Below, piece by piece: positions 6,121 through 48,167 of a stretch of DNA of 64,000 bases; the first letter of the stretch is position 1; every line of letters starts with the position of its first letter. Made by a program: the position numbers and the translations under genes. The DNA comes from an uncultured delta proteobacterium (GTDB lineage: Bacteria > Desulfobacterota > Binatia > UBA9968). The notes beneath the pieces are model-generated. The model ran no database searches and was not told the origin of the DNA. It was given only the letters and a program-made list of their open reading frames with translations. The stretch covers positions 1 through 64,000 of the forward strand of contig CAVSLC010000013.1 of the NCBI GenBank assembly GCA_963728565.1, given 5' to 3'.

Positions 6121-6688
6121 TTCTTCGATTCCGTTCAGCTATCTACAGATTCGATCTGAAATTTAGATCTCTAAAATCACGCACGAAGGGAGTCTTTATG
6201 TTGAATTTGCACCATTGTTTTCGGCCGCGGGAGGAGGAAGTCGCATCGAAAGTTATCGATGGCGAGGCCATCATCATCAATCTAGCCAACGGGGTTTATT
6301 ACAGTATGGATAAAGCGGGCGCCTTTATCTGGGATCTACTCCAGGCAGGGCACACTTTGGAAGAGGTAATCGCGGCCGTCACCGAGCATTACGACGTTTC
6401 CCGCCAGCAGGCAGAGTCGAATGTTCAAGAGCTGATCCAGGAGCTTGTTCAAGAGAATCTGGTAATTTCGTCAGAGAACGGCAAAGCCGCGCCGGCCCAG
6501 TCGACCGCCAATGGCGACAAATTGCCCTACGAGCTTCCCAAGCTCAACATCTATCGGGATATGGGAGACCTGCTGGCATTGGACCCGCCGGTTCCGGGTC
6601 TCGGCGATACGCCTTGGAAGGATCCGAATGATTCTTCCAAGTGAGCAGATCGCCAGCTCGATGCCCATGAACTCGCCATTGGTAAGTT
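6121..6688 (+). repeat. Repeat copy 1: upstream region + PqqD/RRE gene + GT2 5' end
   Basis: Near-identical to 14147-14715 including 77 nt upstream and MPMNSPLVS; the CDS part also matches 11638-12088. Confidence 0.95.
6198..6644 (+). CDS. PqqD/RRE-family protein with C-terminal lasso-leader-like extension (copy 1)
   Basis: Residues ~1-90 are PqqD-like (VIDGEAIIINLANGVYYSMDKAGAFIWDLL...HYDVSRQQAESNVQELIQELVQENLV); tail YELPKLNIYRDMGDLLALDPPVPGLGDTPWKDPNDSSK; RBS GGGAG. Confidence 0.85.
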   Translation: MLNLHHCFRPREEEVASKVIDGEAIIINLANGVYYSMDKAGAFIWDLLQAGHTLEEVIAAVTEHYDVSRQQAESNVQELIQELVQENLVISSENGKAAPAQSTANGDKLPYELPKLNIYRDMGDLLALDPPVPGLGDTPWKDPNDSSK

Positions 6689-6720
6689 ACATCGTTGGTG
6701 TTTCTCGCCGCCGTCAGAAT
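6661..6720 (+). pseudogene. GT2 5' stub
   Basis: MPMNSPLVSYIVGV matches the start of GT2 14688 (MPMNSPLVSCVVPV), then homology stops. Confidence 0.7.
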
Positions 6721-6762
6721 CCAACGGACCTGCTGCCTTGAAGTTATAAACTATGCCCTGGT

Positions 6763-7803
6763 GTGAAAAAAAAGAACAGGCAACCTTTGCAGGACATACG
6801 GACGCCGCAGGACAACGCCATGGATCTTAAATACGACGTGGAGGCGGATTGGATTCTGTTGACGACCTGCAATTTCCGTTGTGCCTACTGCTTTGTTCCG
6901 CTTCCTGAGTTGGCCACCAAGTTAACCACCCATGGCACGAATGCTCAGTGGGCGGAAGGATTCGCGGCAACCGAAAAGACCTGGCTACTGCACATAAGCG
7001 GAGGCGAACCTTCCATTTATCCGGGCTTCGTTGATCTGTGCGAAAAACTCAGTCGGCGTCATTACTTGTCAATTAATTCCAACCTGTCGCACCGCTGCAT
7101 AGAAACCTTCGGGGAGTCAATCGATCCGGAACGAGTCCATTTTATCAATGCCGCCGTGCACTATGACGAGAGGCCAAAGCAGAGATCGCTTGCGGCTTTC
7201 ATAACTCGTGTGCAGAAGCTCCATATGCACCGATTTCATGTGTTTGTCTCCTTGGTGATGACTCCTCTCATGGTGAGGAACTTTCCTGAAATATCGAGGT
7301 ACTTCGAGTCCCATGGATTATCTCTCATTCCTAAAGTTATGCGCGACCGATTCCAAGGGAAGATCTACCCGGGTGCGTACTCTGGTGAGGAGAAGTCCCT
7401 CCTGCGTGAATATTTAACAAAGGCAAGGGAGAACTATGCTGCAGTCAAAGCTGTGATGGGTGAAACAGCGACGATCAACATGTTGGATGACGACCGCTTC
7501 CTGGATAGTCCTCGGATTTACCGCGGTAAGCTCTGTGGTTCGGGACACAACTTTGTCCGCATCGAACCGGATGGAGCGGTGGTCCGTTGTGGGTCGGCGA
7601 TGCAACTTGGCAATATCCTTCTAAGGAATGTCGCGCTTCTTAGCGCGCCCAAACCCTGCGACAGTTTTTACTGTCCGTACTTCTGTGAGAAATACACGTC
7701 GCCGCCATTCGTGCCGGCGCAAGCAACGAAGAGAGATCTTGGTGATTTTTTCCTGTCATTGAAGGCGTGGCGAGATTCGCAACGGCAACAGCCGGAGAGA
7801 TAA
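6763..7803 (+). CDS. Radical SAM protein with C-terminal Cys-rich (Twitch/SPASM-like) domain; start may be ATG 6820
   Basis: CNFRCAYC (CxxxCxxC), SGGEP, LCGSGHNFVRIEPDGAVVRC...PCDSFYCPYFC. Confidence 0.85.
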   Translation: MKKKNRQPLQDIRTPQDNAMDLKYDVEADWILLTTCNFRCAYCFVPLPELATKLTTHGTNAQWAEGFAATEKTWLLHISGGEPSIYPGFVDLCEKLSRRHYLSINSNLSHRCIETFGESIDPERVHFINAAVHYDERPKQRSLAAFITRVQKLHMHRFHVFVSLVMTPLMVRNFPEISRYFESHGLSLIPKVMRDRFQGKIYPGAYSGEEKSLLREYLTKARENYAAVKAVMGETATINMLDDDRFLDSPRIYRGKLCGSGHNFVRIEPDGAVVRCGSAMQLGNILLRNVALLSAPKPCDSFYCPYFCEKYTSPPFVPAQATKRDLGDFFLSLKAWRDSQRQQPER

Positions 7804-11016: not shown

Positions 11017-11128
11017 CTAACCGTCGAGAGTGATCGAGGCATGACCTATCCGGAGCGAGGCAATAAGCCTTGTCTTGAAAGGGCCGGAAAACTGAGTTGG
11101 TGGAGCGAATGCCTCGACTGGGCCAAGT

Positions 11129-11345
11129 GAGCTGGTCGACAGGTTAGTTCAAGGAAATCTGTTCATTCCTTCAGAGTACGCCTGCGCTATTCGTTACTAG
11201 AAACGATTGACCAGCAGGAAAAAGTTCCGTAGGAGATTCCTAAGCTCAATATTTATAGAGAAATGGCAGGCCTGCTGGCACTCGATGCACCGTTTCCGGA
11301 TCTTGGTGCCACCCTTGGAAGGACTCGGACGAATCTTGCAAACGA
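11129..11345 (+). pseudogene. Decayed fourth copy of the PqqD/RRE-leader gene (3' part)
   Basis: ELVDRLVQGNLFIPSE ... KVP*EIPKLNIYREMAGLLALDAPFPDLGAT/WKDSDESCK, with stops and frameshifts. Confidence 0.85.
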
Positions 11346-11364
11346 CAGCGAAATGCAATCGTGC

Positions 11365-11486
11365 ATGAATTCACTTTTGTTCAGTTGCATCATGCCGGTA
11401 TTCAACGGGGAGCGCTCCCCGAGAAGCCCTCGACAGCATCCTGGCGCAGACCTAGCGTCCTATCGAGATTATTGTTGTCGACGACG
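11365..11486 (+). pseudogene. Decayed GT2 5' fragment
   Basis: MNSLLFSCIMPVFNGER / REALDSILAQT*RPIEIIVVDD. Confidence 0.85.
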
Positions 11487-11638
11487 CGGCGAGACAAGAA
11501 AACCTAGACTCGCAATCAGGCACTTAATCATTTCCAATATCACTGTTTCGCTTTGGGCAAATTAGACGATAGGGATTATGGCTCACTTCGATCGTTTGGG
11601 TATTTATCGCAAGGCAAAAATTAGCTGGGAGGATTGCT

Positions 11639-12085
11639 ATGTTGAATTTGCACCATTGTTTTCGGCCGCGGGAGGAGGAAGTCGCATCGAAAGTTATCGA
11701 TGGCGAGGCCATCATCATCAATCTGGCCAACGGGGTTTATTACAGTATGGATAAAGCGGGCGCCTTTATCTGGGATCTGCTCCAGGCCGGGCACACTTTG
11801 GAAGAGGTAATCGCGGCCGTCACCGAGCATTACGACGTTTCCCGCCAGCAGGCAGAGTCGAATGTTCAAGAGCTGATCCAGGAGCTTGTTCAAGAGAATC
11901 TGGTAATTTCGTCAGAGAACGGCAAAGCCGCGCCGGCCCAGTCGACCGCCAATGGCGACAAATTGCCCTACGAGCTTCCCAAGCTCAACATCTATCGGGA
12001 TATGGGAGACCTGCTGGCATTGGACCCGCCGGTTCCGGGTCTCGGCGATACGCCTTGGAAGGATCCGAATGATTCTTCCAAGTGA
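11639..12085 (+). CDS. PqqD/RRE-family protein with lasso-leader-like extension (copy 2)
   Basis: Protein identical to copies 1 and 3; has a different upstream region with RBS GGAGGA. Confidence 0.85.
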   Translation: MLNLHHCFRPREEEVASKVIDGEAIIINLANGVYYSMDKAGAFIWDLLQAGHTLEEVIAAVTEHYDVSRQQAESNVQELIQELVQENLVISSENGKAAPAQSTANGDKLPYELPKLNIYRDMGDLLALDPPVPGLGDTPWKDPNDSSK

Positions 12086-12136: not shown

Positions 12137-12883
12137 ATGGTAGGACCTTCCATCAGTTGTATCGTGCCGGTTTTTAATGGCGAGCGCTATCTGAGCGAGG
12201 CGTTGGACAGCATTTTTGCCCAAGTCTATCGGCCGCTGGAAGTTATCGTTGTAAATGATGGATCAACCGACGGCACCGCTCGGGTGCTGGCCGGATATAA
12301 ACACCGCCTGCTCTACCTGGAGCAGGCGGACAAAGGACCCGCCGCATCCCGGAATCTCGGAGTGAGCACTGCGCGAGGTGAGTTCGTGGCTTTTCTCGAT
12401 CAGGATGATCTCTGGCATCCGCAAAAACTCGCGCGGCAGATCGCCCGGTTTGAAGCCCGACCCGAACTCGATCTGTGCATTGCGCACGTGCAAATGTTTT
12501 GGGTTCCGGAGCTGCAGGGAGAAGCTGCGCGCTTGACCAATCAGCCACGCGGGAACGTCGTGGCCGGCTATACGACCGGAACTCTGTTAACCCGCCGGAT
12601 CTTCTTCGAGGCCGCGGGCGGCTTCGATACCACATTGTGGTTTGGAGACGCGACCGACTGGTTCTTACGCTTGGCCGATGGAAAAGCTGTCATGGAGTTG
12701 TTGCCCGACGTTTTGCTTTATCATCGAATGCACCGGGCCAACCTTACCCGGCGGCGTAGTGCCGCCAGTAGAGATGAATTCCTTCGCATCGTGAAACGAT
12801 CCCTCGACCAGCGCCGGCCGGACGGGGAGAGAGCGACCTCTCTGAAGTTTCCAACGTCTCTGGGTGTTGGAAAAGGACGATAG
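12137..12883 (+). CDS. Glycosyltransferase family 2 (paralog family A)
   Basis: ISCIVPVFNGERYL, NDGSTD, FLDQDDLW, QMFWVPEL. Confidence 0.9.
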   Translation: MVGPSISCIVPVFNGERYLSEALDSIFAQVYRPLEVIVVNDGSTDGTARVLAGYKHRLLYLEQADKGPAASRNLGVSTARGEFVAFLDQDDLWHPQKLARQIARFEARPELDLCIAHVQMFWVPELQGEAARLTNQPRGNVVAGYTTGTLLTRRIFFEAAGGFDTTLWFGDATDWFLRLADGKAVMELLPDVLLYHRMHRANLTRRRSAASRDEFLRIVKRSLDQRRPDGERATSLKFPTSLGVGKGR

Positions 12884-14146: not shown

Positions 14147-14715
14147 TTCTTCGATTCCGTTTCAACTATCTACAGATTCGATCTGAAATTTAGATCTCTA
14201 AAATCACGCACGAAGGGAGTCTTTATGTTGAATTTGCACCATTGTTTTCGGCCGCGGGAGGAGGAAGTCGCATCGAAAGTTATCGATGGCGAGGCCATCA
14301 TCATCAATCTGGCCAACGGGGTTTATTACAGTATGGATAAAGCGGGCGCCTTTATCTGGGATCTACTCCAGGCAGGGCACACTTTGGAAGAGGTAATCGC
14401 GGCCGTCACCGAGCATTACGACGTTTCCCGCCAGCAGGCAGAGTCGAATGTTCAAGAGCTGATCCAGGAGCTTGTTCAAGAGAATCTGGTAATTTCGTCA
14501 GAGAACGGCAAAGCCGCGCCGGCGCAGTCGACCGCCAATGGCGACAAATTGCCCTACGAGCTTCCCAAGCTCAACATCTATCGGGATATGGGAGACCTGC
14601 TGGCATTGGACCCGCCGGTTCCGGGTCTCGGCGATACGCCTTGGAAGGATCCGAATGATTCTTCCAAGTGAGCAGATCACCAGCTCGATGCCCATGAACT
14701 CGCCATTGGTAAGTT
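14147..14715 (+). repeat. Repeat copy 3: upstream region + PqqD/RRE gene + GT2 5' end
   Basis: Near-identical to 6121-6688. Confidence 0.95.
14225..14671 (+). CDS. PqqD/RRE-family protein with lasso-leader-like extension (copy 3)
   Basis: Protein identical to copies 1 and 2. Confidence 0.85.
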   Translation: MLNLHHCFRPREEEVASKVIDGEAIIINLANGVYYSMDKAGAFIWDLLQAGHTLEEVIAAVTEHYDVSRQQAESNVQELIQELVQENLVISSENGKAAPAQSTANGDKLPYELPKLNIYRDMGDLLALDPPVPGLGDTPWKDPNDSSK

Positions 14716-15398
14716 GCGTCGTTCCTGTCTTTAACGGTGAACGTTATCTGCGGGAAGCGCTAGATAGCATTTTGGCGCAGACATATCGTCCATTGGAGAT
14801 CATCGTTGCCGATGATGGGTCCACCGATGAAACCCCAAAGATTGTCGCGGCTTTCGGGAATCGGCTGCGGTATCTGAGACAGGGCAATCAGGGACCCGCG
14901 GCCGCACGAAACCTGGGCATACGCGCCGCCACAGGTGAATTCATCGCTTTTCTCGATGCCGATGATTTATGGCACGCCGAGAAGTTGGAGCGCCAGATGG
15001 CGCGGTTTCAGGTTCGCCCAGAGCTCGATTACTGCGTGACCTACACACAGAACTTCTGGGTCCTGGAACTGCGCTTGGAAGCCGAAAGGTATCGGCGCAA
15101 TCGTGTTGCTCAGCCGCTGCCTGGATATGTTACGCAAACACTCTTCGCACGGCGCGCTGTATTTGATTCAGTCGGTCTGTTCAATACCGCGTTGGCCCAT
15201 GGTGACAGTACGGAATGGTTTTTACGCGCGGCGGAACACGGCGCGGTGATGGAGCTGTTGCCTCAGGTCCTCACGCGTCGCCGCCTCCATTCAGAAAACC
15301 GAAGCCGACTTCGCGCTTCTGATAGTCGCGAAGAATTTCTCCGCATTGTAAAATCGTCTCTGGATCGACGGCGCCGGAGCGACCATCCGGCGCGTTGA
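14688..15398 (+). CDS. Glycosyltransferase family 2 (paralog family A)
   Basis: VSCVVPVFNGERYL, ADDGSTD, FLDADDLW; start ATG 14688 or 14694. Confidence 0.9.
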   Translation: MPMNSPLVSCVVPVFNGERYLREALDSILAQTYRPLEIIVADDGSTDETPKIVAAFGNRLRYLRQGNQGPAAARNLGIRAATGEFIAFLDADDLWHAEKLERQMARFQVRPELDYCVTYTQNFWVLELRLEAERYRRNRVAQPLPGYVTQTLFARRAVFDSVGLFNTALAHGDSTEWFLRAAEHGAVMELLPQVLTRRRLHSENRSRLRASDSREEFLRIVKSSLDRRRRSDHPAR

Positions 15399-16869: not shown

Positions 16870-17702
16870 ATGATAAGAGCACATACTTGTTTCATCGTAT
16901 GCGCGACGCCGCGTTCCGGCAGCTCGCTCCTGTGCGAAGCTCTCTGGAACACCCGTCTCGCCGGACGGGCGGAAAATATTTTAATCGAGAGAGCGAGGCC
17001 ATATGGCGGGCAAGGCACGGCATCGATTCCACTATCGACTATTTACGCTGGTTGATGGATCGCGGAACATCGTCCAACGCCGTCTTCGGCGCAAAAATCA
17101 TGTGGCATCAAATGACTTACTGTATTCAACTGCTTCGGCAGCTCCCGGACTATCGAAGCCATAATCGGGGAAGCATCCCGGAATTGATCTCGACCGTTTT
17201 TCCCAATCTCTTCTATGTCTGGATTACCCGTAGCGATAAAGTGAGGCAGGCGGTCTCGATCGATATCGCGCTTCAAACCGGAAATTATGCGTGGATCGGT
17301 GATCAGAAGCCTAGTTCGAAGACAGAGCCGGAATTTAACTTCAACCGCATCGATTTTCAGATGCATCGCATCGTCGCTTCTGAACTGGGCTGGCAACAGT
17401 ATTTTACTAAAGCCGGGGTTACTCCATTCGAAGTATCATACGAAGAGTTCGTGGTGCGGTACGAGGAGACCACACGTGCGATTGGATTATCTAGCTGTTC
17501 ATATTCCGGTCGATCAGAATTTCTCGGCAAACCCAAATTGAAGAAGATGTCGGGTGGCTTGAACGATGAATGGGTACGGCGGTATCACGAGATCAAGGCG
17601 CGGCAGCCTGCGGACAACGATCGCATCCGCCAGCGTCTCGCCGAATGGTTTGTTACGATCCCGAAAACATCTAAGCAGAATGGTCGTAATCGACTACCCT
17701 GA
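16870..17702 (+). pseudogene. Stf0-family sulfotransferase with apparent frameshifts
   Basis: 5'-PSB motif CATPRSGSSLLC in one frame, shifting near 16975 to YFNRE...FGAKIMW...RSDKVRQAVS; a further pair of compensating shifts near 17480-17525. Confidence 0.8.
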
Positions 17703-20157: not shown

Positions 20158-20910
20158 ATGCGCGTGATTATCACCGGCGCTGCCGGAGAAATCGGCGGCC
20201 AAATAGTCGAGGAGCTCTTCGACAGCCACGACCTCTGTCTCGTGGATCGGCGCCCGGTGGCCGGTCGCATGTCTCTGATTGCCGACCTCTCAAAGAGTTA
20301 CTCTTGGATGCGCTGGCTACGCTGGATGAGGGTGTCCGAATACCCGCGCTGGATGGAAGTGTTTGAGGGCGCCGACGTTGTCCTTCATCTCGCCGTAGAT
20401 CAACGTCGGGCGGTACCCGAGCAGCAACGGCTTTTTAATAACATGCAAATCACTCTAAATGTCATGGAAGCAGCGATACGCCACCACGTTTCGCGCGTGG
20501 TATTTGCCAGCTCCAACTGGGCAGTCAAAGGAACTGAACGTGAATTGGCGCCTGCTTGCTACCTGCCTGATGGACCGAAGATCGGCTCGGACGCGCCGCC
20601 CCGCCCGATCAACGCGTACGGAGTCGCGAAAGCTTTTGGCGAAATCAGCGGTCGCATGGCGGTCGATCGGAGTCAGTTAGAAACGTTCGTAGCTGTCCGA
20701 ATCGGCTCTTTTCTGCCGTTCCCTCCAGAAGACGAGCGCCGGACCCGCTGGATCGGCGTGCAGGATATTCGGCGGCTTCTGCGGCGTTGTGTCGAGGCGC
20801 AATTTAGAGGATTCCACGTGGTTTACGGTGTTTCTGCGCAACCGACCGCGCCTTACGATCTTTCCCACACCCGAAAGCTGCTGTGCTGGCAGCCTCAGCT
20901 ACAGCCGTGA
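20158..20910 (+). CDS. NAD-dependent epimerase/dehydratase, uronate-dehydrogenase-like SDR (paralog 3)
   Basis: TGAAGEIG, FASSNW, YGVAK; paralog of 2502 and 3288. Confidence 0.85.
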   Translation: MRVIITGAAGEIGGQIVEELFDSHDLCLVDRRPVAGRMSLIADLSKSYSWMRWLRWMRVSEYPRWMEVFEGADVVLHLAVDQRRAVPEQQRLFNNMQITLNVMEAAIRHHVSRVVFASSNWAVKGTERELAPACYLPDGPKIGSDAPPRPINAYGVAKAFGEISGRMAVDRSQLETFVAVRIGSFLPFPPEDERRTRWIGVQDIRRLLRRCVEAQFRGFHVVYGVSAQPTAPYDLSHTRKLLCWQPQLQP

Positions 20911-20944
20911 GTGGCCAACCGCGCTCGTATTTTTGAAAACGGTT

Positions 20945-21796
20945 ATGGAAGCTAAAAAGCTCGTAGGCGCGCGCGATGAAGCTGACTACAGTTCACTCCT
21001 TCTTAGTCATAGAGACGTTGCCGCTTACGAGTATCCATTTTTCCATGGCTGTATTGACAATTATCTACCCGACGAGCTTTACCGGTCTTTGCTGCAGAGT
21101 TTCCCCAAGGAAACCCTCCGTATCAATTATAGTGCCGAAAACACACTTGGCAGTGACCATTCGAGATTGACGGATTTTTGGCGAGCAAGCCCGTTATGCA
21201 AAAACCTGCTGAGGTTTTTCACGTCAGCCACATTCCTGCAAGATCTAAGAAAATTTGTTACACCCGCGATCAGCCGCGACCCCGACCGCACCGATCAGCC
21301 AGAGTGGTATTACGTAAACGGCTGGTCCGGTGCGACGGAAAGGAGAGAGCGCAAACCGATCCGAGTCACTTTCAAGTTTTCGCGTTTGACTTCAAGCGGA
21401 TGGATACCGCCCCACACTGACAATCCCTGCAAGCTTTTCTCCTTTGTTTTCTACTTCGCGGAATCTGATTGGCGGGAAAGCTACGGCGGCGGCACTGAAA
21501 TCTATGAACCTAAGATCGCTGCGCTCAGGAACAATTGGCGGAACCTCGAGATGCCTTTCGAATTTATGCGTCGCCGGCGTACTTTCGCGTTCCTGCCGAA
21601 CCGGCTCGTGTTTCTTATGAAATCCAGGAACTCCTGGCACGGCGTTTCACCTCTTGCCTGTCCCCAAGAAAGGTCACGGAAATCGTTGCTGGTAACGTTC
21701 CACGACGGTCCATATCATCCGGAGAACACAATGCATGCGACAGCGCATAGCCTGATCCGCAGCTGGATGCAGCTGAAAGGTTATCCATCATCCTGA
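20945..21796 (+). CDS. 2-oxoglutarate/Fe(II)-dependent oxygenase
   Basis: YPFFHGCIDNYLP, HTD...GGGT...SWHGV...RKS facial-triad pattern. Confidence 0.8.
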   Translation: MEAKKLVGARDEADYSSLLLSHRDVAAYEYPFFHGCIDNYLPDELYRSLLQSFPKETLRINYSAENTLGSDHSRLTDFWRASPLCKNLLRFFTSATFLQDLRKFVTPAISRDPDRTDQPEWYYVNGWSGATERRERKPIRVTFKFSRLTSSGWIPPHTDNPCKLFSFVFYFAESDWRESYGGGTEIYEPKIAALRNNWRNLEMPFEFMRRRRTFAFLPNRLVFLMKSRNSWHGVSPLACPQERSRKSLLVTFHDGPYHPENTMHATAHSLIRSWMQLKGYPSS

Positions 21797-21885
21797 AGGC
21801 GAACGACTAGGGTCTTCCGGTCCCCACGAGACTGTAACGGCTCGATATCCAGGACATGGCCTGGAGTCATTCGAGGAGGTTCATC

Positions 21886-22770
21886 ATGTCCTCTGTCGCT
21901 ATGGCGGTTTTCAACAACAAGATTCCCCTGTTTGAGCGTCTCCAAATTGAATCACAATCGAACTGCAACCGGTCGTGCTGGTTTTGCCCGCGCACCTACG
22001 ATCGTTCTGGAAAATACCTGGATGCCGACGGCGCGCCCGTCTTCAATGAGATGCCGATAGAGAAAATAATTGACCTCCTTGATCAGGCGCGGGCGATGGG
22101 ATTCCAAGGACGCGTGGCTTTTTACCATTATTCCGAGCCTCTGCTCGATAAACGAAACATCATGCTGGCCCGGGAAGCCAGACGACGCGGCATGAAGCCC
22201 TACCTGCACACGAACGGCGACGTGCTAAGACACGACGATGTGTTATGCGCGGAGGTCAAGCAAGTCTATGGGCTTATCGTGGTGGGACTCTACGACTACA
22301 AAACAAACGAAGAGCTTGAAGTCGCCAAGCGCTACTGGCAGAGGAGACTGGCGGGGGCCAACCTGGAGTTTAGCCCTATCGGTCTCTCTTCAGCCAGAGC
22401 GAGCCACGGCATCGGCATTCCCCGGGCTCTGGTACCTTCGGATTCTCGCATGTCCACGCCTGATGTCACCTTCGCCCACGCGCCCTGTCACCGGCCGTTA
22501 ATCCGGCTGCTGATTCAGCACGATGGTGAAATGTGTCACTGCTGCGAGGATAATTACGGGGCATTCAAACTAGGCAATGTGCACAAACACTCCTTGGAAG
22601 AGCTTTGGTTTTCCGAACGCCACGTCCGGATCATTACCGAGCTGATTGCAGGCCAGCGGCAAAACTACGCGTTGTGTCAGAACTGCCCGCTTCCTCCGAC
22701 CGGTTCGGCTTTGGTCGGTAGGAAGATCGAAATCAGGCCGCGTCGCAACGACGGCATAAGCAAGCAATAG
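21886..22770 (+). CDS. Radical SAM protein with BtrN-like Twitch/SPASM domain
   Basis: CNRSCWFC; PCHRP...DGEMCHCCED...LGNV...SLEELW...LCQNC; RBS GGAGG before ATG 21886. Confidence 0.88.
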   Translation: MSSVAMAVFNNKIPLFERLQIESQSNCNRSCWFCPRTYDRSGKYLDADGAPVFNEMPIEKIIDLLDQARAMGFQGRVAFYHYSEPLLDKRNIMLAREARRRGMKPYLHTNGDVLRHDDVLCAEVKQVYGLIVVGLYDYKTNEELEVAKRYWQRRLAGANLEFSPIGLSSARASHGIGIPRALVPSDSRMSTPDVTFAHAPCHRPLIRLLIQHDGEMCHCCEDNYGAFKLGNVHKHSLEELWFSERHVRIITELIAGQRQNYALCQNCPLPPTGSALVGRKIEIRPRRNDGISKQ

Positions 22771-22780
22771 GAACAGGCCG

Positions 22781-23905
22781 ATGCGTGTCTTGTTCTGGTC
22801 AAGCGCTTTTTTGCCTCAGATAGGAGGCATCGGAGTGCTCGCTGCTCAATTCTTGCCGGCGATGCGCGCACGCGGCTATGAGTACGTCGTCACTGCGTCC
22901 CAGGGTGATCGAAGCCTACCCTCAAGTGCGACGCGGAAAGGAATTCCCGTTCATCGGTTTCCTTTTTGGCAATCGCTGGCCAACATCGACGAGCTTGTGG
23001 AAGTACGGCAGCAGGTGGCTGAACTCAAGCGGCGTTTCGCGCCCGATCTGATTCACATCAACGGCCCCGGGCGCGATGATTTTTTTCACCTCGTGACAGC
23101 TAGTGCCCATCCCGCGCCTTTGCTGGTTACATTGCATGGAGAATGGGTAAAGGAAGCCGATGCGATCGTAAAACGTACTCTACAGAGCGCTGCTTGGGTA
23201 GTTGGGTGCTCGAATGCGATTCTCGAGAAAGGACAGCGACTGGCGCCCGAGATAGTCCCTCATTCATCCGTCATTTATAACGCTGTCGCTGAAACCCTCG
23301 TTGTCCCTGCGCCTCTACCCACTCAATCACAACGGCTTCTTTGCATCGGTCGACTTTCTAAAGAAAAAGGTTTTGATTTGGCTTTGACTGCGTTCGCTTG
23401 CATTGTGAATCGGCTCCCCGATTTACGTTTGGTCATCGCTGGAGACGGACCTGAACGGAGGCGGCTGGAAAACCAGGCCGTCGAGATGGGACTAAAAGAC
23501 ACCATTCAGTTCCTAGGATGGGTTGCTCCAGAAAATGTCCCGGGGTTAATCAACACAGCTACAGTGGTGGTCATGCCGTCTCGTGCCGAATCGCTTCCGA
23601 TGGTGGCGTTACAGGCGGCCCAGATGGCTCGTCCGGTCGCCGGGACCCGTGTGGGGGGCCTTCCTGAAGTTGTCATTGACCACGAGACGGGATTCCTGGT
23701 CGACAAAGAAAATCCCGAAGCGCTGGCCAACGCGATAGCATTTTTACTTGATCATCCCGAAAGAGCTACTCGGATGGGGCAAGCTGCACGAGACCGGGTG
23801 CAAAGGGATTTTGATTGGGAGCGACACGTGAATGCTTATGACCGTCTGTACAACAAACTGATGAGCGCCGGGGCAACTGCGAGTCTCCTATCTCAGGAGA
23901 ATTGA
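22781..23905 (+). CDS. Glycosyltransferase family 4 (paralog family B)
   Basis: RVLFWSSAFLPQIGG, GRLSKEKG, ESLPMVALQA. Confidence 0.9.
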   Translation: MRVLFWSSAFLPQIGGIGVLAAQFLPAMRARGYEYVVTASQGDRSLPSSATRKGIPVHRFPFWQSLANIDELVEVRQQVAELKRRFAPDLIHINGPGRDDFFHLVTASAHPAPLLVTLHGEWVKEADAIVKRTLQSAAWVVGCSNAILEKGQRLAPEIVPHSSVIYNAVAETLVVPAPLPTQSQRLLCIGRLSKEKGFDLALTAFACIVNRLPDLRLVIAGDGPERRRLENQAVEMGLKDTIQFLGWVAPENVPGLINTATVVVMPSRAESLPMVALQAAQMARPVAGTRVGGLPEVVIDHETGFLVDKENPEALANAIAFLLDHPERATRMGQAARDRVQRDFDWERHVNAYDRLYNKLMSAGATASLLSQEN

Positions 23906-23907
23906 TC

Positions 23908-31751: not shown

Positions 31752-32852
31752 ATGTCATTGAAATTCGGCGCCGAGACCAGGGCGCCAAAGTTCGGTGGCG
31801 CGTGCGAGTTCAAGGCGATGCTCGACGCATTCGATGAGGCGTGGAAAGTCCATCCGTCGAAGCGTTGGCAGTCAACCTTCATATTCTCAGGCAAGCGCGT
31901 CCATTTCAGAGTTGTCGGCGCTCAGGCGGCAACAAAATTGACCAGAGCTTTGAGCCACTTGATGATTCCCCGCGGCGCCGAAAGCGCGCAGCTCAAAATT
32001 GACATCTGGGATCAAAGTGAAACATCGATTTCTTGCCCAGTAGAACCGGAACCGGTCGAGAAACATATCTCCGGCTCGACCTGGTATGTTGAATTTGGCT
32101 TGATCTTGGGTTCATCGGAAGATGCCTTTGTTGGTTGCCAGCGACCTAAGCTCCTCACGTGGTTTAATCGTGACACCCGGCACCTCGTCGGCTGCGTTCA
32201 TGCGAGCGACAACCTGCCTCTCTACGATCTCGGTAAACCGCTGCTTTTCCCTCTGTTGTTATGGCACAGCGATCAGAACGTGGAAGTGAGTCATGCCTGC
32301 CTTATTTCCAAGCGCGGACAGGGAGTGCTTTTTGCCGGAAGGGGAGGGGTGGGCAAGTCCACGTCCGCCTTGGCCTGCATTGAAGGCGGTTTTAGCTATC
32401 TTGGCGACGACTACATTGCATTGGAGAGAACCGGAGACGGATCGTTTGCCGGACACAGTCTGTACAGCTCGACTTGGCTCATGGCCGATCATATACCGCG
32501 CTTTCCCAAATTGGTTCCTCACGCGCTGTACGCACCCCGTCCGGAGCAAGAGAAAAGTCTGGTCTTCCTTTCGGATGTTTTTCCCCATCAACTCGCCACG
32601 AGCGTGCCAATTCGAGCAGTGGCCCTCCCTCGGGTAACCGGTGCATCTTCACCGCGGGTGCGGCGAGCCTCCCGAGCCGAGGCGCTTTTTGCGCTGGCCC
32701 CTAAGTCGCTCATCCTGCTTCCTAGCTCGGGCGCGAAGGGCTGGGAAAACCTGGTGCGATTGGCTGAGCGCGTGCCTTCTTTCTGGCTCGAGCTAGGCGA
32801 GAATATGAGTGAAGTCCCGGACCGCATAGAGGAGCTGATCAACCTCGGTTAG
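31752..32852 (+). CDS. HprK-related serine kinase (1)
   Basis: HACL...GVLFAGRGGVGKST (Walker A)...YLGDD, the HPr-kinase C-domain signature. Confidence 0.82.
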   Translation: MSLKFGAETRAPKFGGACEFKAMLDAFDEAWKVHPSKRWQSTFIFSGKRVHFRVVGAQAATKLTRALSHLMIPRGAESAQLKIDIWDQSETSISCPVEPEPVEKHISGSTWYVEFGLILGSSEDAFVGCQRPKLLTWFNRDTRHLVGCVHASDNLPLYDLGKPLLFPLLLWHSDQNVEVSHACLISKRGQGVLFAGRGGVGKSTSALACIEGGFSYLGDDYIALERTGDGSFAGHSLYSSTWLMADHIPRFPKLVPHALYAPRPEQEKSLVFLSDVFPHQLATSVPIRAVALPRVTGASSPRVRRASRAEALFALAPKSLILLPSSGAKGWENLVRLAERVPSFWLELGENMSEVPDRIEELINLG

Positions 32853-39211: not shown

Positions 39212-40348
39212 ATGCGCGTATTATTTTGGACACTGAGTTTCTGGCCCAACATTGGCGGTCTCGAAGTGCTTGCCGCGAAGCTCGTGCCTGCCTTGCGCGA
39301 TCGCGGCCATGAATTCCTTATTGTAGCGCCCAAAAGCTCGCCTGAGTTGTCCGATGAGGCGCAATACAACGGCATTCCGATCCAGCGCTGCTATTTTCAG
39401 AATACAACCAAGCCGGCCGGCATCGATCACTTGCTCGATGTTAAACAAAAAGTTGCCAGGCTGAAACGGCACTTTGCGCCGGATCTGGTCCACGTCAACG
39501 GCGTCGGGCCAACTGACTTTTTTCACCTGACGACCAGAAACGCGCATTGGGCTCCCACGTTGGTTACGTTGCACGGCGAATGGCATCCGCAGGCCGACGG
39601 GATCGTAGCACGTACCTTGCGCGAGGCCGATTGGGTGGCCGGTTGCTGCGCCGCGGTTCTTGAGCATGGACAACGATTAGCGCCGCAGATGGCCCCACGT
39701 TCCTCGGTCATCTACAACGGTCTGGAAACTCCGGCACTGGCTACCGAACCGTTGCCTTTAGACCCGCCGCGCATTTTATGTCTGGGACGCCTCTCACCGG
39801 AGAAGGGCATGGACCTGGCTCTCGCTTCCTTCGTCGCGATTCTCGCTCGATTTCCTGGCGCCCGTTTGATCATCGCCGGCGACGGAGTTCTCCGATCCGA
39901 TCTTGAACGTCAGGCTGCCTCTCATGGTATTGCTCGTGCCGTGGATTTCATCGGCTGGATCGAGCCCGATAAGGTGGCGGCGCTGATCAACACCTCGACA
40001 GTTGTCCTGATGCCATCTCGACGAGATTCGCTTCCTTTGGTGGCCTTACAGGCCGCCTTGATGGCCCGTCCAATCGTCGCGACACGGGTGGGAGGACTTC
40101 CGGAAGTCGTAGTGCATGAAGAGACCGGCTTACTCGTTGAAAATGAAAACAGCGAGGCGCTAGCCGATGCAGTGGGGTTTTTGCTGTCACATCCTGGGGT
40201 CGCCAGGCTGATGGGAGAGGCAGCCCGCGCCCGCGCACAAACAGCGTTCAGCTGGGAGCATCACGTCAACTCCTATGATCTTTTGTACCGGAAATTAGCT
40301 GTTAAAAAACAAGAGCCGATAAATATTTCTGGAGATGGCTGTGATTGA
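39212..40348 (+). CDS. Glycosyltransferase family 4 (paralog family B)
   Basis: MRVLFWTLSFWPNIGG, GRLSPEKG, DSLPLVALQA; closest by eye to 22781. Confidence 0.9.
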   Translation: MRVLFWTLSFWPNIGGLEVLAAKLVPALRDRGHEFLIVAPKSSPELSDEAQYNGIPIQRCYFQNTTKPAGIDHLLDVKQKVARLKRHFAPDLVHVNGVGPTDFFHLTTRNAHWAPTLVTLHGEWHPQADGIVARTLREADWVAGCCAAVLEHGQRLAPQMAPRSSVIYNGLETPALATEPLPLDPPRILCLGRLSPEKGMDLALASFVAILARFPGARLIIAGDGVLRSDLERQAASHGIARAVDFIGWIEPDKVAALINTSTVVLMPSRRDSLPLVALQAALMARPIVATRVGGLPEVVVHEETGLLVENENSEALADAVGFLLSHPGVARLMGEAARARAQTAFSWEHHVNSYDLLYRKLAVKKQEPINISGDGCD

Positions 40349-41441
40349 AGTCAAACCAAACCAAGGCTTTGCTCCGCCGGCGCCGGATGGCGGCGCCGAC
40401 CTCGGCTTCAATCTCATGCGGAATGCCTTTGCACAGGCAAAGACAATGCATCCGAACCTCTTTCACGAGTCGTCTTATGTCCTGGCGGGCCAAACGGTGA
40501 ACATGCGAATCGTCGGGCAGAGGCTCGCCGAATTTATGGATTTGCCGTTCGCGCATCTGCGGGTCGACCATCCCCAGTTGACGGGGCCGCGCCTCAACAT
40601 CGAGCTCTGGGACCAGGCTGAAACAAATGTCTCTTGCCGACTCGGGTTGATACGGGACGATCTGGATTTGCATCCGAATCTAAAACATTCCGCCGATGGC
40701 CGATACGCTTCCTACCAGCTGCAGCATTCATTGGTATCGCTCGATCGGTCATCCGGTTTTATATGCGGTTATGCGTCGAACGCGGAAGAGCTGTCTCTTT
40801 ACGAACGCGGCCGGCCCCTGCACGTGCTCTTGAGTTTGTGGCATAAGAGTCTGGACATGCCGCTGGTGCATGCCGGTTTGGTTTCCAAGAGCGGCCGTGG
40901 CGTACTGCTGGCAGGTCCCGGCGGCTCGGGCAAGTCGACGTCGGCCATCACCTCTGCGTTCGCCGGTTTTGATTACCTGAGCGAGGATCTCGTCGGCTTG
41001 CAGGCGTCGCCGGACAACGGTTTTGTGGGTCATAGTCTCTACAGTTCGACCTTCATAGAGCCGAATCATCTTAAGCGGTTCGCGCTGTTCGATGGACATG
41101 CGATAAAAGGAAAATATCCTTTCGAGACGAAACTTCTGGTTCTGCTGTCACAGATTGCTCCGCTTCGATTTGCGCGAGCCTGCCGGATTCACGCCGTAGT
41201 ACTCCCTCGCGTCCTGCATCTTCCGGCGTCGCGCCTTCGTCCGGCTTCCAAAGGCGAGGCACTACTGACGCTTGCTCCCAGCTCTCTTCTCGTAGGCGAA
41301 AAAAGTAATGGGCTGCAGGGATTTAATAAGCTCGCGCAACTGGTCGAGCAAGTACCCTGTTATTGGCTAGAACTGGGCGGCGCTCTGGAAGAAATCCCCT
41401 GCGTTCTTGAAAGACTGCTGTCGGACACGGCAGGTAATTGA
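40335..41441 (+). CDS. HprK-related serine kinase (2)
   Basis: HAGLV...GVLLAGPGGSGKST...YLSED; paralog of 31752. Confidence 0.82.
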   Translation: MAVIEVKPNQGFAPPAPDGGADLGFNLMRNAFAQAKTMHPNLFHESSYVLAGQTVNMRIVGQRLAEFMDLPFAHLRVDHPQLTGPRLNIELWDQAETNVSCRLGLIRDDLDLHPNLKHSADGRYASYQLQHSLVSLDRSSGFICGYASNAEELSLYERGRPLHVLLSLWHKSLDMPLVHAGLVSKSGRGVLLAGPGGSGKSTSAITSAFAGFDYLSEDLVGLQASPDNGFVGHSLYSSTFIEPNHLKRFALFDGHAIKGKYPFETKLLVLLSQIAPLRFARACRIHAVVLPRVLHLPASRLRPASKGEALLTLAPSSLLVGEKSNGLQGFNKLAQLVEQVPCYWLELGGALEEIPCVLERLLSDTAGN

Positions 41442-41472
41442 ACTTTGGCGACCGTGGCGAGATGAGCCTATC

Positions 41473-42858: not shown

Positions 42859-42874
42859 GTGCAAGACAGTGCTC

Positions 42875-44314: not shown

Positions 44315-44335
44315 CTCGGTACGGTGACAAAAGCT

Positions 44336-45175: not shown

Positions 45176-45199
45176 TCCTTTGCCGGGTGAGAAAAAGCC

Positions 45200-46915
45200 A
45201 TGCACCCCTACGCTCAGACCAACCTCCAGCTCTTTAACCAGCTTCGCGGCGACGGCTACTCAAGAACAGATCTCGGCCTTGTTCGTGATGCCTATGAGCT
45301 GGCGATGGTGTTTTTTTCGGGTCGCTTTCAGGCCTCCGGTAAATCCTTCATAGCTCACGTGGTGGGGACCGCCAGCATTCTCGCTTCGCTGAGGTTGCCC
45401 GCCCCCATCGTGGCGGCGGGGCTACTTCATAATATTTATGAGAACGGGGATTTCAGCGACGGCCGCAATGGTATTTCGAAATCCCGACGCCGCAAGATTC
45501 GAAACGTTTTGGGCGCGGAAGTTGAAACCTACATTGCTAAATTTCCGGCGTTATATTGGGAACCGCTGACAACACAGCTTGCCCGTCGCCATCCCGACAA
45601 GATCGATTCGACCGTCCGGGCGGTTCTCTTGATCTTGTTCGCGGAACATTTGGAGCATCTCCTGGATTTGGATGCTCTTTATGGCGCTGATCGGGTCGCG
45701 CGTTCCTTTATCGATCGCAGTAAAGATGCAGCGGAGATCGCCGACGCGCTAGGCGTGCCCCAGCTTGCCGCTGAACTGCGCGCAGCAATTCGGGAGACGC
45801 AAGCCGGCAAGCTGCTCGTGGAGCCTGTCGAAAATCGTCGCCGAGAGGACTCCTTTGTTGTAGTGCCCCGGTCCTGCCGGAAACGACTCCGGGCAGCGCT
45901 GCGTTCCGGGGCCTACCATCTCCGTCGAAACTTTGAAAGGCGGGCCAAGCTTATTCACCGGAAATCGCCAGACTTCATCAAAAAGACCATCGGATGGATT
46001 GCACGACGACCATCACCGGCAGCCGGCCTGGAAATCAAATCGGAAGCACTTCGTCGACTCTTTCCCGAGGGTGCAACTCCGGAGCGAATCGCAACGGGCT
46101 TTAGGTTTACCGAAGGCCCGGTTTGGATCGCTGAGGAAAAAAAGCTTCTCTTCAGCGACATTCCCGCCGATCGTATCATCGCAATAACGACCGATGGGCG
46201 GGTAGCGACATACAGAAAATCTAGCGGCAACTCTAACGGGTTGACTCGAGATGAAAAAGGGCGGTTGATCGCCTGCGAACATGGCAATCGTCGGCTGACA
46301 CGAACGGACCAAGACGGTACTATCGAAATTCTGGCCGACACATTCCATGGTAAGAAGCTCAATAGCCCGAACGACGTCGTCGTAAAATCCGATGGTGCCA
46401 TATACTTCACCGATCCGGCCTATGGTATCGAGCTCGAACATCAAGAACAGCCCGTTCAAGGTGTCTATCATCTCTCGCCTGATGGACCGGAACTCTCGTT
46501 GGTCGCCGATGATTTCGCCCGACCTAACGGGCTAGCGTTTTCGCCCGATGAAAAAAAACTTTACATCGACGACTCGCAACGCCGTCATATCCGAGTTTTC
46601 GATGTTGAGCCGGACGGAACGCTCTCCGGCGGTTCTGTATTTTGTGATATGAATGTAAGCGATCCGGGCTCACCCGACGGAATGAAAGTGGATGTCGCCG
46701 GCCATGTCTACTGCACAGGGGCGGGAGGGGTCTGGGTTTTCGATAGCGATGGCAAACACCTGGGTACGCTGATGACCCCCGAGAAGCCGTCGAATTGTGC
46801 TTGGGGTAACGAAGATTGGCGAACTCTCTTTATTACCGCGGGAACTTCAGTTTACAAAGTACGTGTCAATACTCCGGGGATCCCGGTGCAGCCTAAATTG
46901 GGCAGAACTGGTTAA
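45200..46915 (+). CDS. HD-fold domain fused to an SMP-30/gluconolactonase domain
   Basis: N-terminal half is a paralog of 44336 (YAQTNLQLFNQL, AAGLLHNIY); C-terminal half has FTEGPVW, NSPND, PNGLAFSPD, PDGMKVD. Confidence 0.8.
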   Translation: MHPYAQTNLQLFNQLRGDGYSRTDLGLVRDAYELAMVFFSGRFQASGKSFIAHVVGTASILASLRLPAPIVAAGLLHNIYENGDFSDGRNGISKSRRRKIRNVLGAEVETYIAKFPALYWEPLTTQLARRHPDKIDSTVRAVLLILFAEHLEHLLDLDALYGADRVARSFIDRSKDAAEIADALGVPQLAAELRAAIRETQAGKLLVEPVENRRREDSFVVVPRSCRKRLRAALRSGAYHLRRNFERRAKLIHRKSPDFIKKTIGWIARRPSPAAGLEIKSEALRRLFPEGATPERIATGFRFTEGPVWIAEEKKLLFSDIPADRIIAITTDGRVATYRKSSGNSNGLTRDEKGRLIACEHGNRRLTRTDQDGTIEILADTFHGKKLNSPNDVVVKSDGAIYFTDPAYGIELEHQEQPVQGVYHLSPDGPELSLVADDFARPNGLAFSPDEKKLYIDDSQRRHIRVFDVEPDGTLSGGSVFCDMNVSDPGSPDGMKVDVAGHVYCTGAGGVWVFDSDGKHLGTLMTPEKPSNCAWGNEDWRTLFITAGTSVYKVRVNTPGIPVQPKLGRTG

Positions 46916-46916
46916 T

Positions 46917-48167
46917 ATGGTGGATACATCCTCGTCATCTCCCGCTTTATCGAATGCTCTATCATTCCTTCTCCCAACATCGGAGGAGACTCTGTTGCTA
47001 CGGATTTGTCTGTCTGCTCGCGAAGCAGCTCGAGACGCCTGGACTGAGTGGCGCAACCAGAGAGATAGGTCCGGCAAGGCCCTTCTCAAAAACAGGTCCG
47101 TCAAGAAGCTCAGACCGCTGCTGTTCAATGCCGTAAAGTCCCATAGCCTTGAAATCGATAAAGAAGCCCTCACTTACCTGAGGACGGCCTATCTGAAAGA
47201 AGAGCTGCGAAACGCCGCTGTTCGCCGCATCTGCTGTGAAGTTCTTCTGATGCTCGAGAAGGAGAGACTTGCACCAATCGTTCTCAAAGGCGCCGCGCTG
47301 GCGGAAACAGTCTACAGTAATCCGGTGCTGCGGCATTGCCATGACATCGATATTCTTCTGCCGGACGAGGAGTTGAGCCGACCCGCGGGTTTTTTGCCCT
47401 CCCTCGGTTTTCGAGTTTGTGCCGCGCCCAACTCGCACAGCCGTCATCTGAAGATGGTTCAGGGGTCCGGACTCCCTCTCGAATTTCATGGCCGACTATT
47501 GGATGTGCCATACTATCAGATGCCGATCTCGGAAATCCGGTCGCGCTGCAGGAGCCAAGTTATCGCTAGCGTCAATTCGCACATTCTAAATCCGGCCGAC
47601 AGTCTTCTCCATGTCTGTGGTCATGCCTCTTACTCGGGTAGGCGTCAATCCTTGCGCTGGGTTACCGATGCTTGGTTTATCATAGACCGGCATCCCGACC
47701 TCGAGTGGAATGAACTATTAAATTCCATTCAGCGGAGCCATCTGGCCTTGCCGATGTCCGTGATGCTCGGGTATTTGGCAGGAACCCTCGAGGCGCCGAT
47801 CCCATCAAGTTTTCTCACTCGTCTTTCAGCCGCTGCTTCACAGTCAGACGCAATCGAGCGGCAGCTTGCGTTGCGTGGAACACGATCGGATGGACAAAGA
47901 AGCCTTCGCGAATTATTCCGCAAGACAACTAATTGGCGCGAACGACTGTTTGTCGTTCAATGGCTGCTGTTTCCATCGCCTGGTTACCTCTCTTGGGTGG
48001 ACCAAATTCATCCTTGGCTCTTACCCTTCCATTACCTGTACCGCCCGCTGCGCTATGCGGCAGGCCGCCTACAGTCAAGCCTCAAAGGCGCGGCGCGAGC
48101 CGCCCAATTTCACATCGAACGATTATTTCTTCGCCACGGGCGCCGGAAATTTCGCCCATTCAGTTGA
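46917..48167 (+). CDS. Nucleotidyltransferase family protein (NTP_transf_5 / PF14907-like)
   Basis: LKGAALAETVY...RHCHDIDILL, LEFH, LLHVCGH, RWVTD. Confidence 0.85.
   Translation: MVDTSSSSPALSNALSFLLPTSEETLLLRICLSAREAARDAWTEWRNQRDRSGKALLKNRSVKKLRPLLFNAVKSHSLEIDKEALTYLRTAYLKEELRNAAVRRICCEVLLMLEKERLAPIVLKGAALAETVYSNPVLRHCHDIDILLPDEELSRPAGFLPSLGFRVCAAPNSHSRHLKMVQGSGLPLEFHGRLLDVPYYQMPISEIRSRCRSQVIASVNSHILNPADSLLHVCGHASYSGRRQSLRWVTDAWFIIDRHPDLEWNELLNSIQRSHLALPMSVMLGYLAGTLEAPIPSSFLTRLSAAASQSDAIERQLALRGTRSDGQRSLRELFRKTTNWRERLFVVQWLLFPSPGYLSWVDQIHPWLLPFHYLYRPLRYAAGRLQSSLKGAARAAQFHIERLFLRHGRRKFRPFS

Follow-up and report, generated by a model that had tools for sequence, protein, structure and literature searches.

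Can a receptor for peptides carry its own peptide? RiPP recognition elements (RREs; RiPPs, ribosomally synthesised and post-translationally modified peptides) are viewed as receptors for separate precursors, and RiPP genome mining seeks a free precursor beside the RRE. The question is raised by a 64,000-nucleotide (nt) stretch of DNA from an uncultured delta proteobacterium (Binatia, UBA9968; assembly GCA_963728565.1, contig CAVSLC010000013.1, positions 1 to 64,000, forward strand), here called the window. It contains a gene for a 148-residue protein, P0001, in which an RRE is followed by a leader-like tail. We propose that P0001 is a lasso-B1-type RRE whose fused cognate leader docks in cis, and that the protein itself is an enzyme substrate. 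We lean towards this proposal as a whole; its best reading of the tail, that the YxxPxL motif lies in the protein's own RRE cleft, is very probable. The gene is divided as follows.

6198..6644, plus strand: copy 1 of the RRE+tail gene, encoding the 148 amino acids (aa) of P0001; mean predicted local distance difference test (pLDDT) of the AlphaFold2 (AF2) model, 88.6
6231..6473, plus strand: RRE/PqqD winged-helix domain of the lasso-B1 type, aa 12-92, from profile and structure matches
6474..6524, plus strand: variable linker, aa 93-109
6525..6557, plus strand: leader-like recognition sequence PYELPKLNIYR, aa 110-120, with YxxPxL at 6528-6545
6558..6602, plus strand: best-conserved element DMGDLLALDPPVPGL, aa 121-135, consensus DMxDLLALDPPxPGL
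6603..6641, plus strand: variable C-terminal end GDTPWKDPNDSSK, aa 136-148, with a semi-conserved (L)GDxxW

The N-terminal part of P0001 is an RRE of the PqqD family. Residues 23-89 match the Pfam PqqD profile (PF05402) over positions 1-67 of 67, with an E-value of 4.9e-18 (65.7 bits against a cut-off of 23.4). The AF2 model has the winged-helix fold, with strands at 15-20, 23-28 and 33-38 and helices at 39-49, 54-64 and 69-85, and Foldseek superposes TbiB1 (5v1v_A) on it with a template-modelling (TM) score of 0.92 on the target. The family profile, run against the PDB, retrieves TbiB1 (5v1u/5v1v, 2.6e-21), PbaB1 (9x90, 3.9e-15), LppB (9x8z, E 7.8e-10) and TfuB1 (E 7.8e-9). In fold, best sequence matches and leader motif, P0001 thus resembles the discrete lasso B1 proteins (TbiB1, TfuB1 6jx3, PbaB1). 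However, these are tail-less proteins of ~85-120 aa that hand their leader to a B2 peptidase, whereas P0001 has 148 aa and a tail. The lasso PqqD chaperone models of NCBIfam stay below their cut-offs for P0001 (NF033536, 63.5 vs 80; NF033530, 46.9 vs 70), and weak matches at the locus to TIGR04248, TIGR04249, TIGR04352 and TIGR04355 all fall far below theirs. The protein atlas yielded only 'PqqD family protein' clusters.

Behind the RRE, a low-complexity linker of about 20 aa (~91-110) leads to Y111, whose codon begins at nt 6528. Translated from 6198-6644, aa 111-148 are YELPKLNIYRDMGDLLALDPPVPGLGDTPWKDPNDSSK, a tail that runs from YELPKL to SSK. The division given in the initial annotation (an RRE of ~90 aa, a linker of ~20 aa, then a leader-like tail) is exact. 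The tail fits the motif [Y/W]xxPx[L/V/I/F/A] bound by discrete lasso and LPP RREs (PMC13381572; this source, PMC8498205 and PMC12710340 are cited here and below for selected portions of their text). Setting Y111 at -17 of the lasso leader pattern places R120 at the Gly position and L126 at Thr(-2), the two replacements pointed out earlier from the sequence. L occupies column 126 in 0.85 of the family, in which YxxPxL is present and conserved. When the tail alone was searched against PDB chains, it returned only a chance-level match to an L11 methyltransferase (E 0.12) and retrieved no leader chains.

Six residues of which only three are fixed can match fortuitously in one protein, and YxxPxL might merely decorate an unrelated C-terminal extension. 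The conservation, spacing and covariation of the motif across the family refute this idea, to which we give almost no credence. Word-indexed search found 1173 proteins at E <=1e-3 among 1197 candidates; among the 120 matches listed, lengths are 147-183 aa and 99-100% of the query is covered. Exhaustive search of 50%-identity cluster representatives found 8904 at 1e-3, 1305 at 1e-10 and 29 at 1e-30. The family sequences analysed below are the best 270 of a whole family of >1000 clusters. The pattern Y..P.[LIMFV] is present in 132 of the 150 best 50%-identity representatives, and 120 of the 150 have the motif with DPP 12 residues further on. The spacing of the DPP element is fixed as well: 137 of 138 modules have D129, a residue conserved at 97%, at Y+18, and the motif covaries with a pocket residue of the RRE, as described below. 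Judged from these sequences, the motif is far beyond chance.

Conservation is distributed unevenly along the protein. When 119 members with a single module are aligned, the columns carry on average 2.21 bits of information in the RRE, 0.89 in the linker, 2.18 in aa 110-120, 3.29 in aa 121-135 and 1.18 in aa 136-148. The conservation of the tail, which had been put forward as a check, is therefore clear, with aa 121-135 exceeding the RRE. The family consensus reads Y-x-x-P-x-L-x-x-Y-r-D-M-x-D-L-L-A-L-D-P-P-x-P-G-L, with Y111 at 0.95, P114 at 0.97 and L116 at 0.88. The tail had been described earlier as Pro/Asp-rich; the tail itself stands, but the generic description overlooked the conserved core DMxDLLALDPPxPGL at aa 121-135, which is probably a handle or site for partner enzymes. 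The C-ends contain S/T in 98 of 115 sequences and W in 68 of 115 (W140, 0.58), and the variable end includes a loose (L)GDxxW, with LGDVxW seen repeatedly in tandem proteins. Distant relatives end in DP[VI]HD....GWP and not in DPPxPGL...PW.

As far as searched, this large family is undescribed: in the full-text literature, subscription papers lying outside the search, we found no account of an RRE that is naturally joined to the sequence it recognises. It comprises 1305 50%-identity clusters at E <1e-10; in its members the receptor and the recognition sequence form one covalent chain, and no peptidase is found. According to a recent survey, 21% of PF05402 proteins exceed the size of a discrete RRE without another Pfam domain (PMC12710340), a fraction to which this family would belong. 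If our reading is correct, RRE+tail proteins would account for a sizeable share of the PqqD proteins of >110 aa that lack another domain (PMC12710340). For structural studies and engineering, they would also supply an RRE that is soluble by nature and already loaded with its ligand.

Where, then, does the conserved motif sit? The AF2 model, built from 119 sequences, places aa 111-120 as a block with a pLDDT of 97 and predicts a strand for 117-119; the leader forms its strand from Y+4 to Y+9 in the LppB crystal (PMC13381572). Predicted as a complex of two chains, aa 1-98 and aa 105-148 score 0.52, whereas the best of three controls scores 0.02, with a contact agreement of at least 80% and a partner pLDDT of at least 54 in the runs. 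Covariation points to the same pocket. P0001 and LppB align without gaps, the LppB numbering being offset by +5 and pairing Y65 with Y60, N75 with D70, L79 with F74 and L83 with M78. Column 75, N in P0001, is Asp in 94% of the family, and D70 of LppB hydrogen-bonds the leader Tyr in the LppB-leader crystal (PMC13381572). Among 169 modules taken from 50%-identity representatives, D or N stands at position 75 in 136 of 141 modules with Tyr111 and in 1 of 14 with Phe111 (Fisher p 4e-14). Column 75 also tops the RRE columns in mutual information with column 111 (0.34 bits, the next column reaching 0.17).

Several points speak against taking this predicted geometry of aa 111-119 as settled. The pLDDT of aa 121-148 is ~63, with a short helix at 122-126, so aa 121-135 are not confidently docked. 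Since RRE-leader complexes have been solved (5v1v, 6jx3, 9x8z, 9x90), both predictions may mirror them, and the score of the complex counts as a weak pass, graded as weak support. Only 9 proteins, of which some are related, contribute the 14 Phe modules, and the Fisher p overstates their independence accordingly. Finally, the initial annotation had the leader folding back onto the RRE as an extra strand, with aa 111-120 paired to β3. The very probable occupation of the cleft and the strand in the predicted 148-aa structure support the folding back; the contact with β3 and α3, including the β3 pairing itself, we infer from AF2 confidence, secondary structure and covariation.

The tail could instead fill the cleft of another molecule, as a domain swap, dimer or chain, and so build an oligomeric scaffold. 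One-chain AF2 and two-chain prediction both leave cis and trans alike, and tandem multi-module proteins exist among the metagenomic relatives: P0122, P0125, P0130 and P0131 have two modules, and P0168, P0174 and P0235 have three. These same proteins argue for the intramolecular arrangement, for they have one YxxPxL..Y(R) per RRE at a constant distance, and the DMxDLLALDPPxP element only once, at the very end. AF2 of the two-module P0122, on a shallow alignment of 5 sequences, predicts a strand at the same motif position behind both RREs. Moreover, the linker is free in sequence and constrained in length, with 21-24 residues between the L88 and Y111 columns in 129 of 158 modules. Such a fixed length is expected of an intramolecular tether rather than a swap, and we regard binding in trans as improbable. 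Two long relatives, P0250 and P0263 (781-789 aa), carry their modules at the N-terminus.

Binding in cis might also be a lid: the motif would then be an autoinhibitory or placeholder ligand that a separate precursor displaces. RREs of the clade to which P0001 belongs normally bind free precursors, and small open reading frames (ORFs) are easily overlooked. To survey the surroundings of the gene, 36 related loci were collected by a pattern scan with one genome per species, biased to sequences with KVIDGEAI or PKLNIYRD. A six-frame scan of the 36 loci and the window with a tail profile, which would miss a dissimilar leader, detected no free peptide resembling the tail; the motif occurred solely at the C-terminus of RRE ORFs. 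The segment behind the motif is also the best conserved in the protein, which would be needless for a mere lid. We consider a displaceable pseudo-leader very improbable. One locus (L036, 2127-2575) had looked like a natural split into RRE and free tail. It was rejected, as several single-base frame changes run through the gene while its residues are conserved; long-read assembly errors are the most likely cause.

If the leader is held in cis, what is presented to which enzymes? The 36 loci come from metagenome-assembled genomes (MAGs) labelled Gemmatimonadota, Binatia, delta proteobacteria, Acidobacteria, Rhodothermales, Verrucomicrobia, Planctomycetes-type and others. Searched with the window proteins (tblastn), 30 of the 36 contain an HprK-like kinase homologue, 32 a small glycosyltransferase of family 2 (GT2) and 26 an NTP_transf_5 nucleotidyltransferase (NTase). 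Most of these genes are directly adjacent to the RRE gene; many contigs are short. GT4 glycosyltransferases are found in 13 of the 36, the Asn-synthase-like ORF 23902-25752 of the window in none, and a homologue of the radical SAM (S-adenosylmethionine) gene behind copy 1 only in L006, the closest locus. For 10 of the loci, 42 flanking ORFs were compared with Pfam: 8 of these loci have a second NTP_transf_5 gene, which in 4 lies directly upstream of the RRE gene, and no peptidase was found. The compact cassette consists of NTP_transf_5, the RRE+tail gene, an HprK-like kinase, one to three GT2 genes and NTP_transf_5. This gene context makes the kinase and the NTase plausible recipients of the tail.

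These genes recall the LPP clusters of Bacillota, LppA/LppB/LppK/LppN/LppS/LppD (Popov et al., Nat Commun 2026, PMC13381572). Their core genes encode LppB, which is a discrete RRE, together with an HprK-like kinase, an NTP transferase, a leader peptidase of the SpI type and an MsbA-like pump, and the clusters lie in capsule loci rich in glycosyltransferases (PMC13381572). The free precursors read YxxPxVLxHQxIxFETxxS and then vary at their C-termini, and the leader past the RRE-bound stretch has been proposed to address the enzymes (PMC13381572). The P0001 system shares the lasso-derived RRE with a YxxP sequence, the HprK-like kinase, the NTP transferase, the lack of a macrolactam cyclase, the polysaccharide locus rich in glycosyltransferases, and the order of a conserved leader part and a variable C-terminus. 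The LPP core trio of RRE, HprK-like kinase and NTP transferase is entirely present in the window. In contrast to the LPP precursor, which is free and has its motif at the N-terminus, the recognition sequence of P0001 is fused to the C-terminus of the RRE. The P0001 cassette has neither an SpI-type peptidase nor an MsbA-type exporter that we could find. YxxPxL is followed by DMxDLLALDPPxPGL instead of the VLxHQxIxFETxxS of the LppA type, and from the published motif and numbering Asp129 of P0001, at Y+18, stands where LppA has its phosphorylated Ser3. The hosts differ as well: Gemmatimonadota, Binatia, deltaproteobacterial, Acidobacteria and other MAGs for RRE+tail, Bacillota for LPP. LppB is insoluble without the leader (PMC13381572), which provides a rationale for a covalent leader-RRE fusion.

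The paeninodin and pseudomycoidin lasso systems offer a second comparison. HPr-kinase homologues phosphorylate lasso precursors at the C-terminal Ser, an NTP_transf_5-type enzyme adds hexose(s) to the phosphate in pseudomycoidin, and a sulfotransferase often accompanies phosphorylated or phosphoglycosylated lasso systems (PMC8498205). HprK-like, NTP_transf_5 and sulfotransferase genes all occur at the RRE+tail locus, the last of these as Stf0 in the window. However, the paeninodin and pseudomycoidin systems rely on a free precursor and a cyclase C, usually with a B2 peptidase as well, none of which was found at the P0001 locus, and their C-terminal Ser is not conserved in the P0001 family. The SynChlorMet ScmC/ScmD and HprK-related kinase A/B cassettes likewise pair a PqqD-family protein with an HprK-like P-loop protein, and we know of no description of a YxxPxL tail on the PqqD protein of such ScmC/ScmD-type PqqD and HprK cassettes. 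In engineered leader-to-enzyme fusions, the covalent leader link gives a constitutively occupied binding site. Those fusions are artificial, whereas the P0001 family would be natural and widespread, with the substrate end staying attached. The LPP and paeninodin systems are the closest known relatives, of which the RRE+tail family would be a variant that is fused in cis, has no peptidase that we found and occurs in other phyla. LPP and paeninodins have been stated to be restricted to Bacillota (PMC13381572), and if our proposal is correct, their logic of modifying peptides by kinase and NTase reaches beyond this phylum.

The initial annotation had seen no peptidase, and our searches agree. Neither a transglutaminase-like B2 peptidase (PF13471) nor an SpI-type peptidase was found among the window ORFs scanned. 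Across the genome (80.6% complete), PF13471 gave one borderline match of 26.1 bits on another contig, and TIGR02228, which stands for the archaeal-type signal peptidase I (LppS), gave none. No ORF at the locus reaches the 525-bit cut-off for the lasso macrolactam cyclase. AsnB at 27561-29630, which retains its glutamine amidotransferase domain, scores 246.7, and the best cyclase candidate, the degenerate Asn-synthase-like ORF 23902-25752, scores 58.1 bits. No ATP-binding cassette (ABC) exporter, MsbA-type included, was found among the window ORFs scanned.

On these grounds we propose the following course of events. P0001 would be a lasso-B1-type RRE that carries its cognate recognition sequence at its own C-terminus on a tether of ~20 residues. 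Residues 111-116, and the strand on to ~119, would fold back into the RRE cleft and place Tyr111 in the first hydrophobic pocket, hydrogen-bonded to residue 75, in the manner of lasso and LPP leaders that bind in trans. This docking would anchor and orient the DMxDLLALDPPxPGL segment and the variable C-end and offer them to the HprK-like kinase, one or two NTP_transf_5 enzymes and the small GT2s. P0001 itself would be phosphorylated and then phosphoglycosylated, by analogy with paeninodin, pseudomycoidin and LPP; its role as a substrate, the chemistry and the acceptor residue we infer from these systems. No leader removal would follow, because no peptidase is encoded.

P0001 is encoded three times in the window, in copies that differ at 4 sites, all of them synonymous, and this multiplicity would raise its supply.

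11639..12085, plus strand: copy 2, same protein; DNA identity from the ATG to 5 nt past the stop
14225..14671, plus strand: copy 3, same protein; ~80 nt upstream and ~50 nt downstream in common with copy 1
~11096..11340, plus strand: decayed fourth copy with stops and a frameshift; tail profile match, E 1.3e-9

The decayed copy retains 62% identity over the tail. Taken together, the synonymous differences and the decay of the fourth copy indicate that the intact copies are kept identical while the unselected one rots, and three identical copies beside a decayed one fit a product needed in quantity. Elsewhere the RRE+tail gene is single-copy within 10 kb either side, so that the triplication is a feature of this genome. 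Near-identical DNA is found in soil metagenome contigs, 8 runs sharing at least half of the words. Breaks in the soil contigs fall at 6121 and 6647, on either border of the repeated gene, and the loose ends there correspond to sequence flanking copies 3 and 2. Read-derived contigs therefore show the arrangement in several copies too, though one run may be the source sample. The copies had gone unremarked in the initial annotation, as had the large tail-conserved family and the compact cassette.

Each intact copy is followed by a gene for a modifying enzyme.

6763..7803, plus strand: radical SAM protein directly behind copy 1 (Radical_SAM 3.2e-9), lineage-specific
12137..12883, plus strand: small GT2 directly behind copy 2, one of 8 paralogues in the window
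14688..15398, plus strand: small GT2 directly behind copy 3 (listed ORF 14538-15398, probable ATG 14688)

Behind copy 1 (6633-6740), ~50 nt of the start of the copy-3 GT2 are still recognisable before a stop, and the radical SAM gene seems to have taken the place of a GT2 there. Just upstream of copy 2, the decayed copy is followed by a decayed GT2 start (MNSLLFSCIMPVFNGER...), and 11096-11500 looks like the remnant of an older RRE-GT2 unit.

The candidate partner enzymes belong to one plus-strand cluster that spans 2.5-50.9 kb and holds 9 GT2 and 8 GT4 genes, sugar epimerases, dehydrogenases, an acetyltransferase, two radical SAM proteins and a 2-oxoglutarate (2OG) oxygenase. Both kinases keep their Walker A motif.

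31752..32852, plus strand: HprK-like kinase 1 (Walker A GRGGVGKS; Hpr_kinase_C 3.1e-8; TIGR04352 3.5e-7, below cut-off)
40335..41441, plus strand: HprK-like kinase 2 (Walker A GPGGSGKS)
46797..48167, plus strand: NTP_transf_5 nucleotidyltransferase (Pfam 5.5e-34)
48474-49685, plus-strand cluster: PEP-CTERM-system ATPase
16887-17702: Stf0 sulfotransferase

The substrate part of the proposal has to be set against evidence that does not favour it. Beyond Y111 and Y119, no Ser, Thr or Tyr is conserved in the tail, which leaves an HprK-like Ser kinase without an obvious acceptor. The residues named earlier as possible acceptors, T138, S146 and S147, stand in variable columns whose top residues are I (0.18), G (0.13) and S (0.09), and the family does not support them as the meaningful acceptors. 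In LPP, Ser3 of LppA is polyphosphorylated, the S3T and S3Y variants are inactive, and the acceptor Ser is conserved (PMC13381572), and in this respect the P0001 family, whose tail has no conserved hydroxyl acceptor, differs. The kinases and the NTase of the window lie 17-40 kb from the three copies, unlike in the compact cassettes elsewhere. The sole RNA run covers 6826-6993, within the radical SAM gene, at 95-99% identity; the RRE gene is outside it, and the run speaks neither for nor against its expression.

The main rival is an adaptor role, in favour of which speaks the lack of a conserved hydroxyl residue in the most conserved segment. The cis-filled RRE would then be a stable scaffold, and aa 121-135 would recruit or activate the kinase, NTase and GT2 enzymes, acting on other molecules such as lipid-linked or soluble sugar intermediates of exopolysaccharide synthesis. 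The window is of exopolysaccharide type, with 17 glycosyltransferase genes, sugar epimerases and dehydrogenases and the PEP-CTERM-system ATPase. Among the 42 flanking ORFs of the 10 loci, Wzx-like flippases occur in 2 loci and MATE genes in 2, flanking some of the cassettes, and LppN was inactive on the peptide in the heterologous LPP system (PMC13381572). On the other hand, the HprK-like kinase acts on an RRE-bound peptide in every characterised relative, three identical copies suit a consumed product better than a catalytic adaptor, and a conserved leader-like part with a variable C-end is the pattern of a RiPP precursor. We therefore regard an adaptor role as unlikely, though worth keeping in view. 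The family as a whole raises the testable idea that RRE+tail systems act within polysaccharide biosynthesis.

A bolder version of the substrate proposal, which we hold to be somewhat more doubtful still, would make the RRE+tail protein a ribosomal primer or carrier for a glycan. Recognition by the fused leader and RRE would be permanent, and the LDPP site, in which Asp129 has the exact spacing of the phospho-Ser3 of LppA, would be held in the active sites of the kinase and the NTase. A phospho-linked sugar would then be extended by GT2 and GT4 enzymes, and the three gene copies would supply a primer that is consumed stoichiometrically. If true, this would link RiPP machinery to the initiation of exopolysaccharides or glycoconjugates in many soil phyla.

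The rest of the cluster offers some further observations. The eight paralogous small GT2 genes (5394-30284; repeat families D1, D2 and D5) encode proteins of ~230-250 aa and share 60-78% DNA identity in conserved blocks. The product of ORF 23902-25752 has 616 aa and no recognisable glutamine amidotransferase domain; a 461-aa ORF without family match overlaps it (region 23902-27103), and neither is found near an RRE gene elsewhere. On another contig of the genome (C25:101285-102028; G000, also L004 and L044), an AT-rich PqqD-like ORF without tail is broken by a TAG, and the same stretch holds an NTP_transf_5-like sequence with six stops. Being AT-rich, interrupted by stops and tail-less, it was rejected as part of the RRE+tail system. 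It could be what is left of a decayed second system, or else a contaminant contig, the contamination of the MAG being 5.8%. Amid the glycosyltransferases of the window lie a radical SAM/SPASM protein (21856-22770), whose homologues are confined to L006 and L007, and a 2OG-Fe(II) oxygenase (20789-21796). Between the second HprK-like gene and the NTP_transf_5 gene, the stretch 41407-46915 contains two ORFs of 483 and 522 aa without family match, then two DUF6817/HD-like proteins. One of the latter is fused to an SMP-30/gluconolactonase domain, and DUF6817 homologues also occur in L007 and L036.

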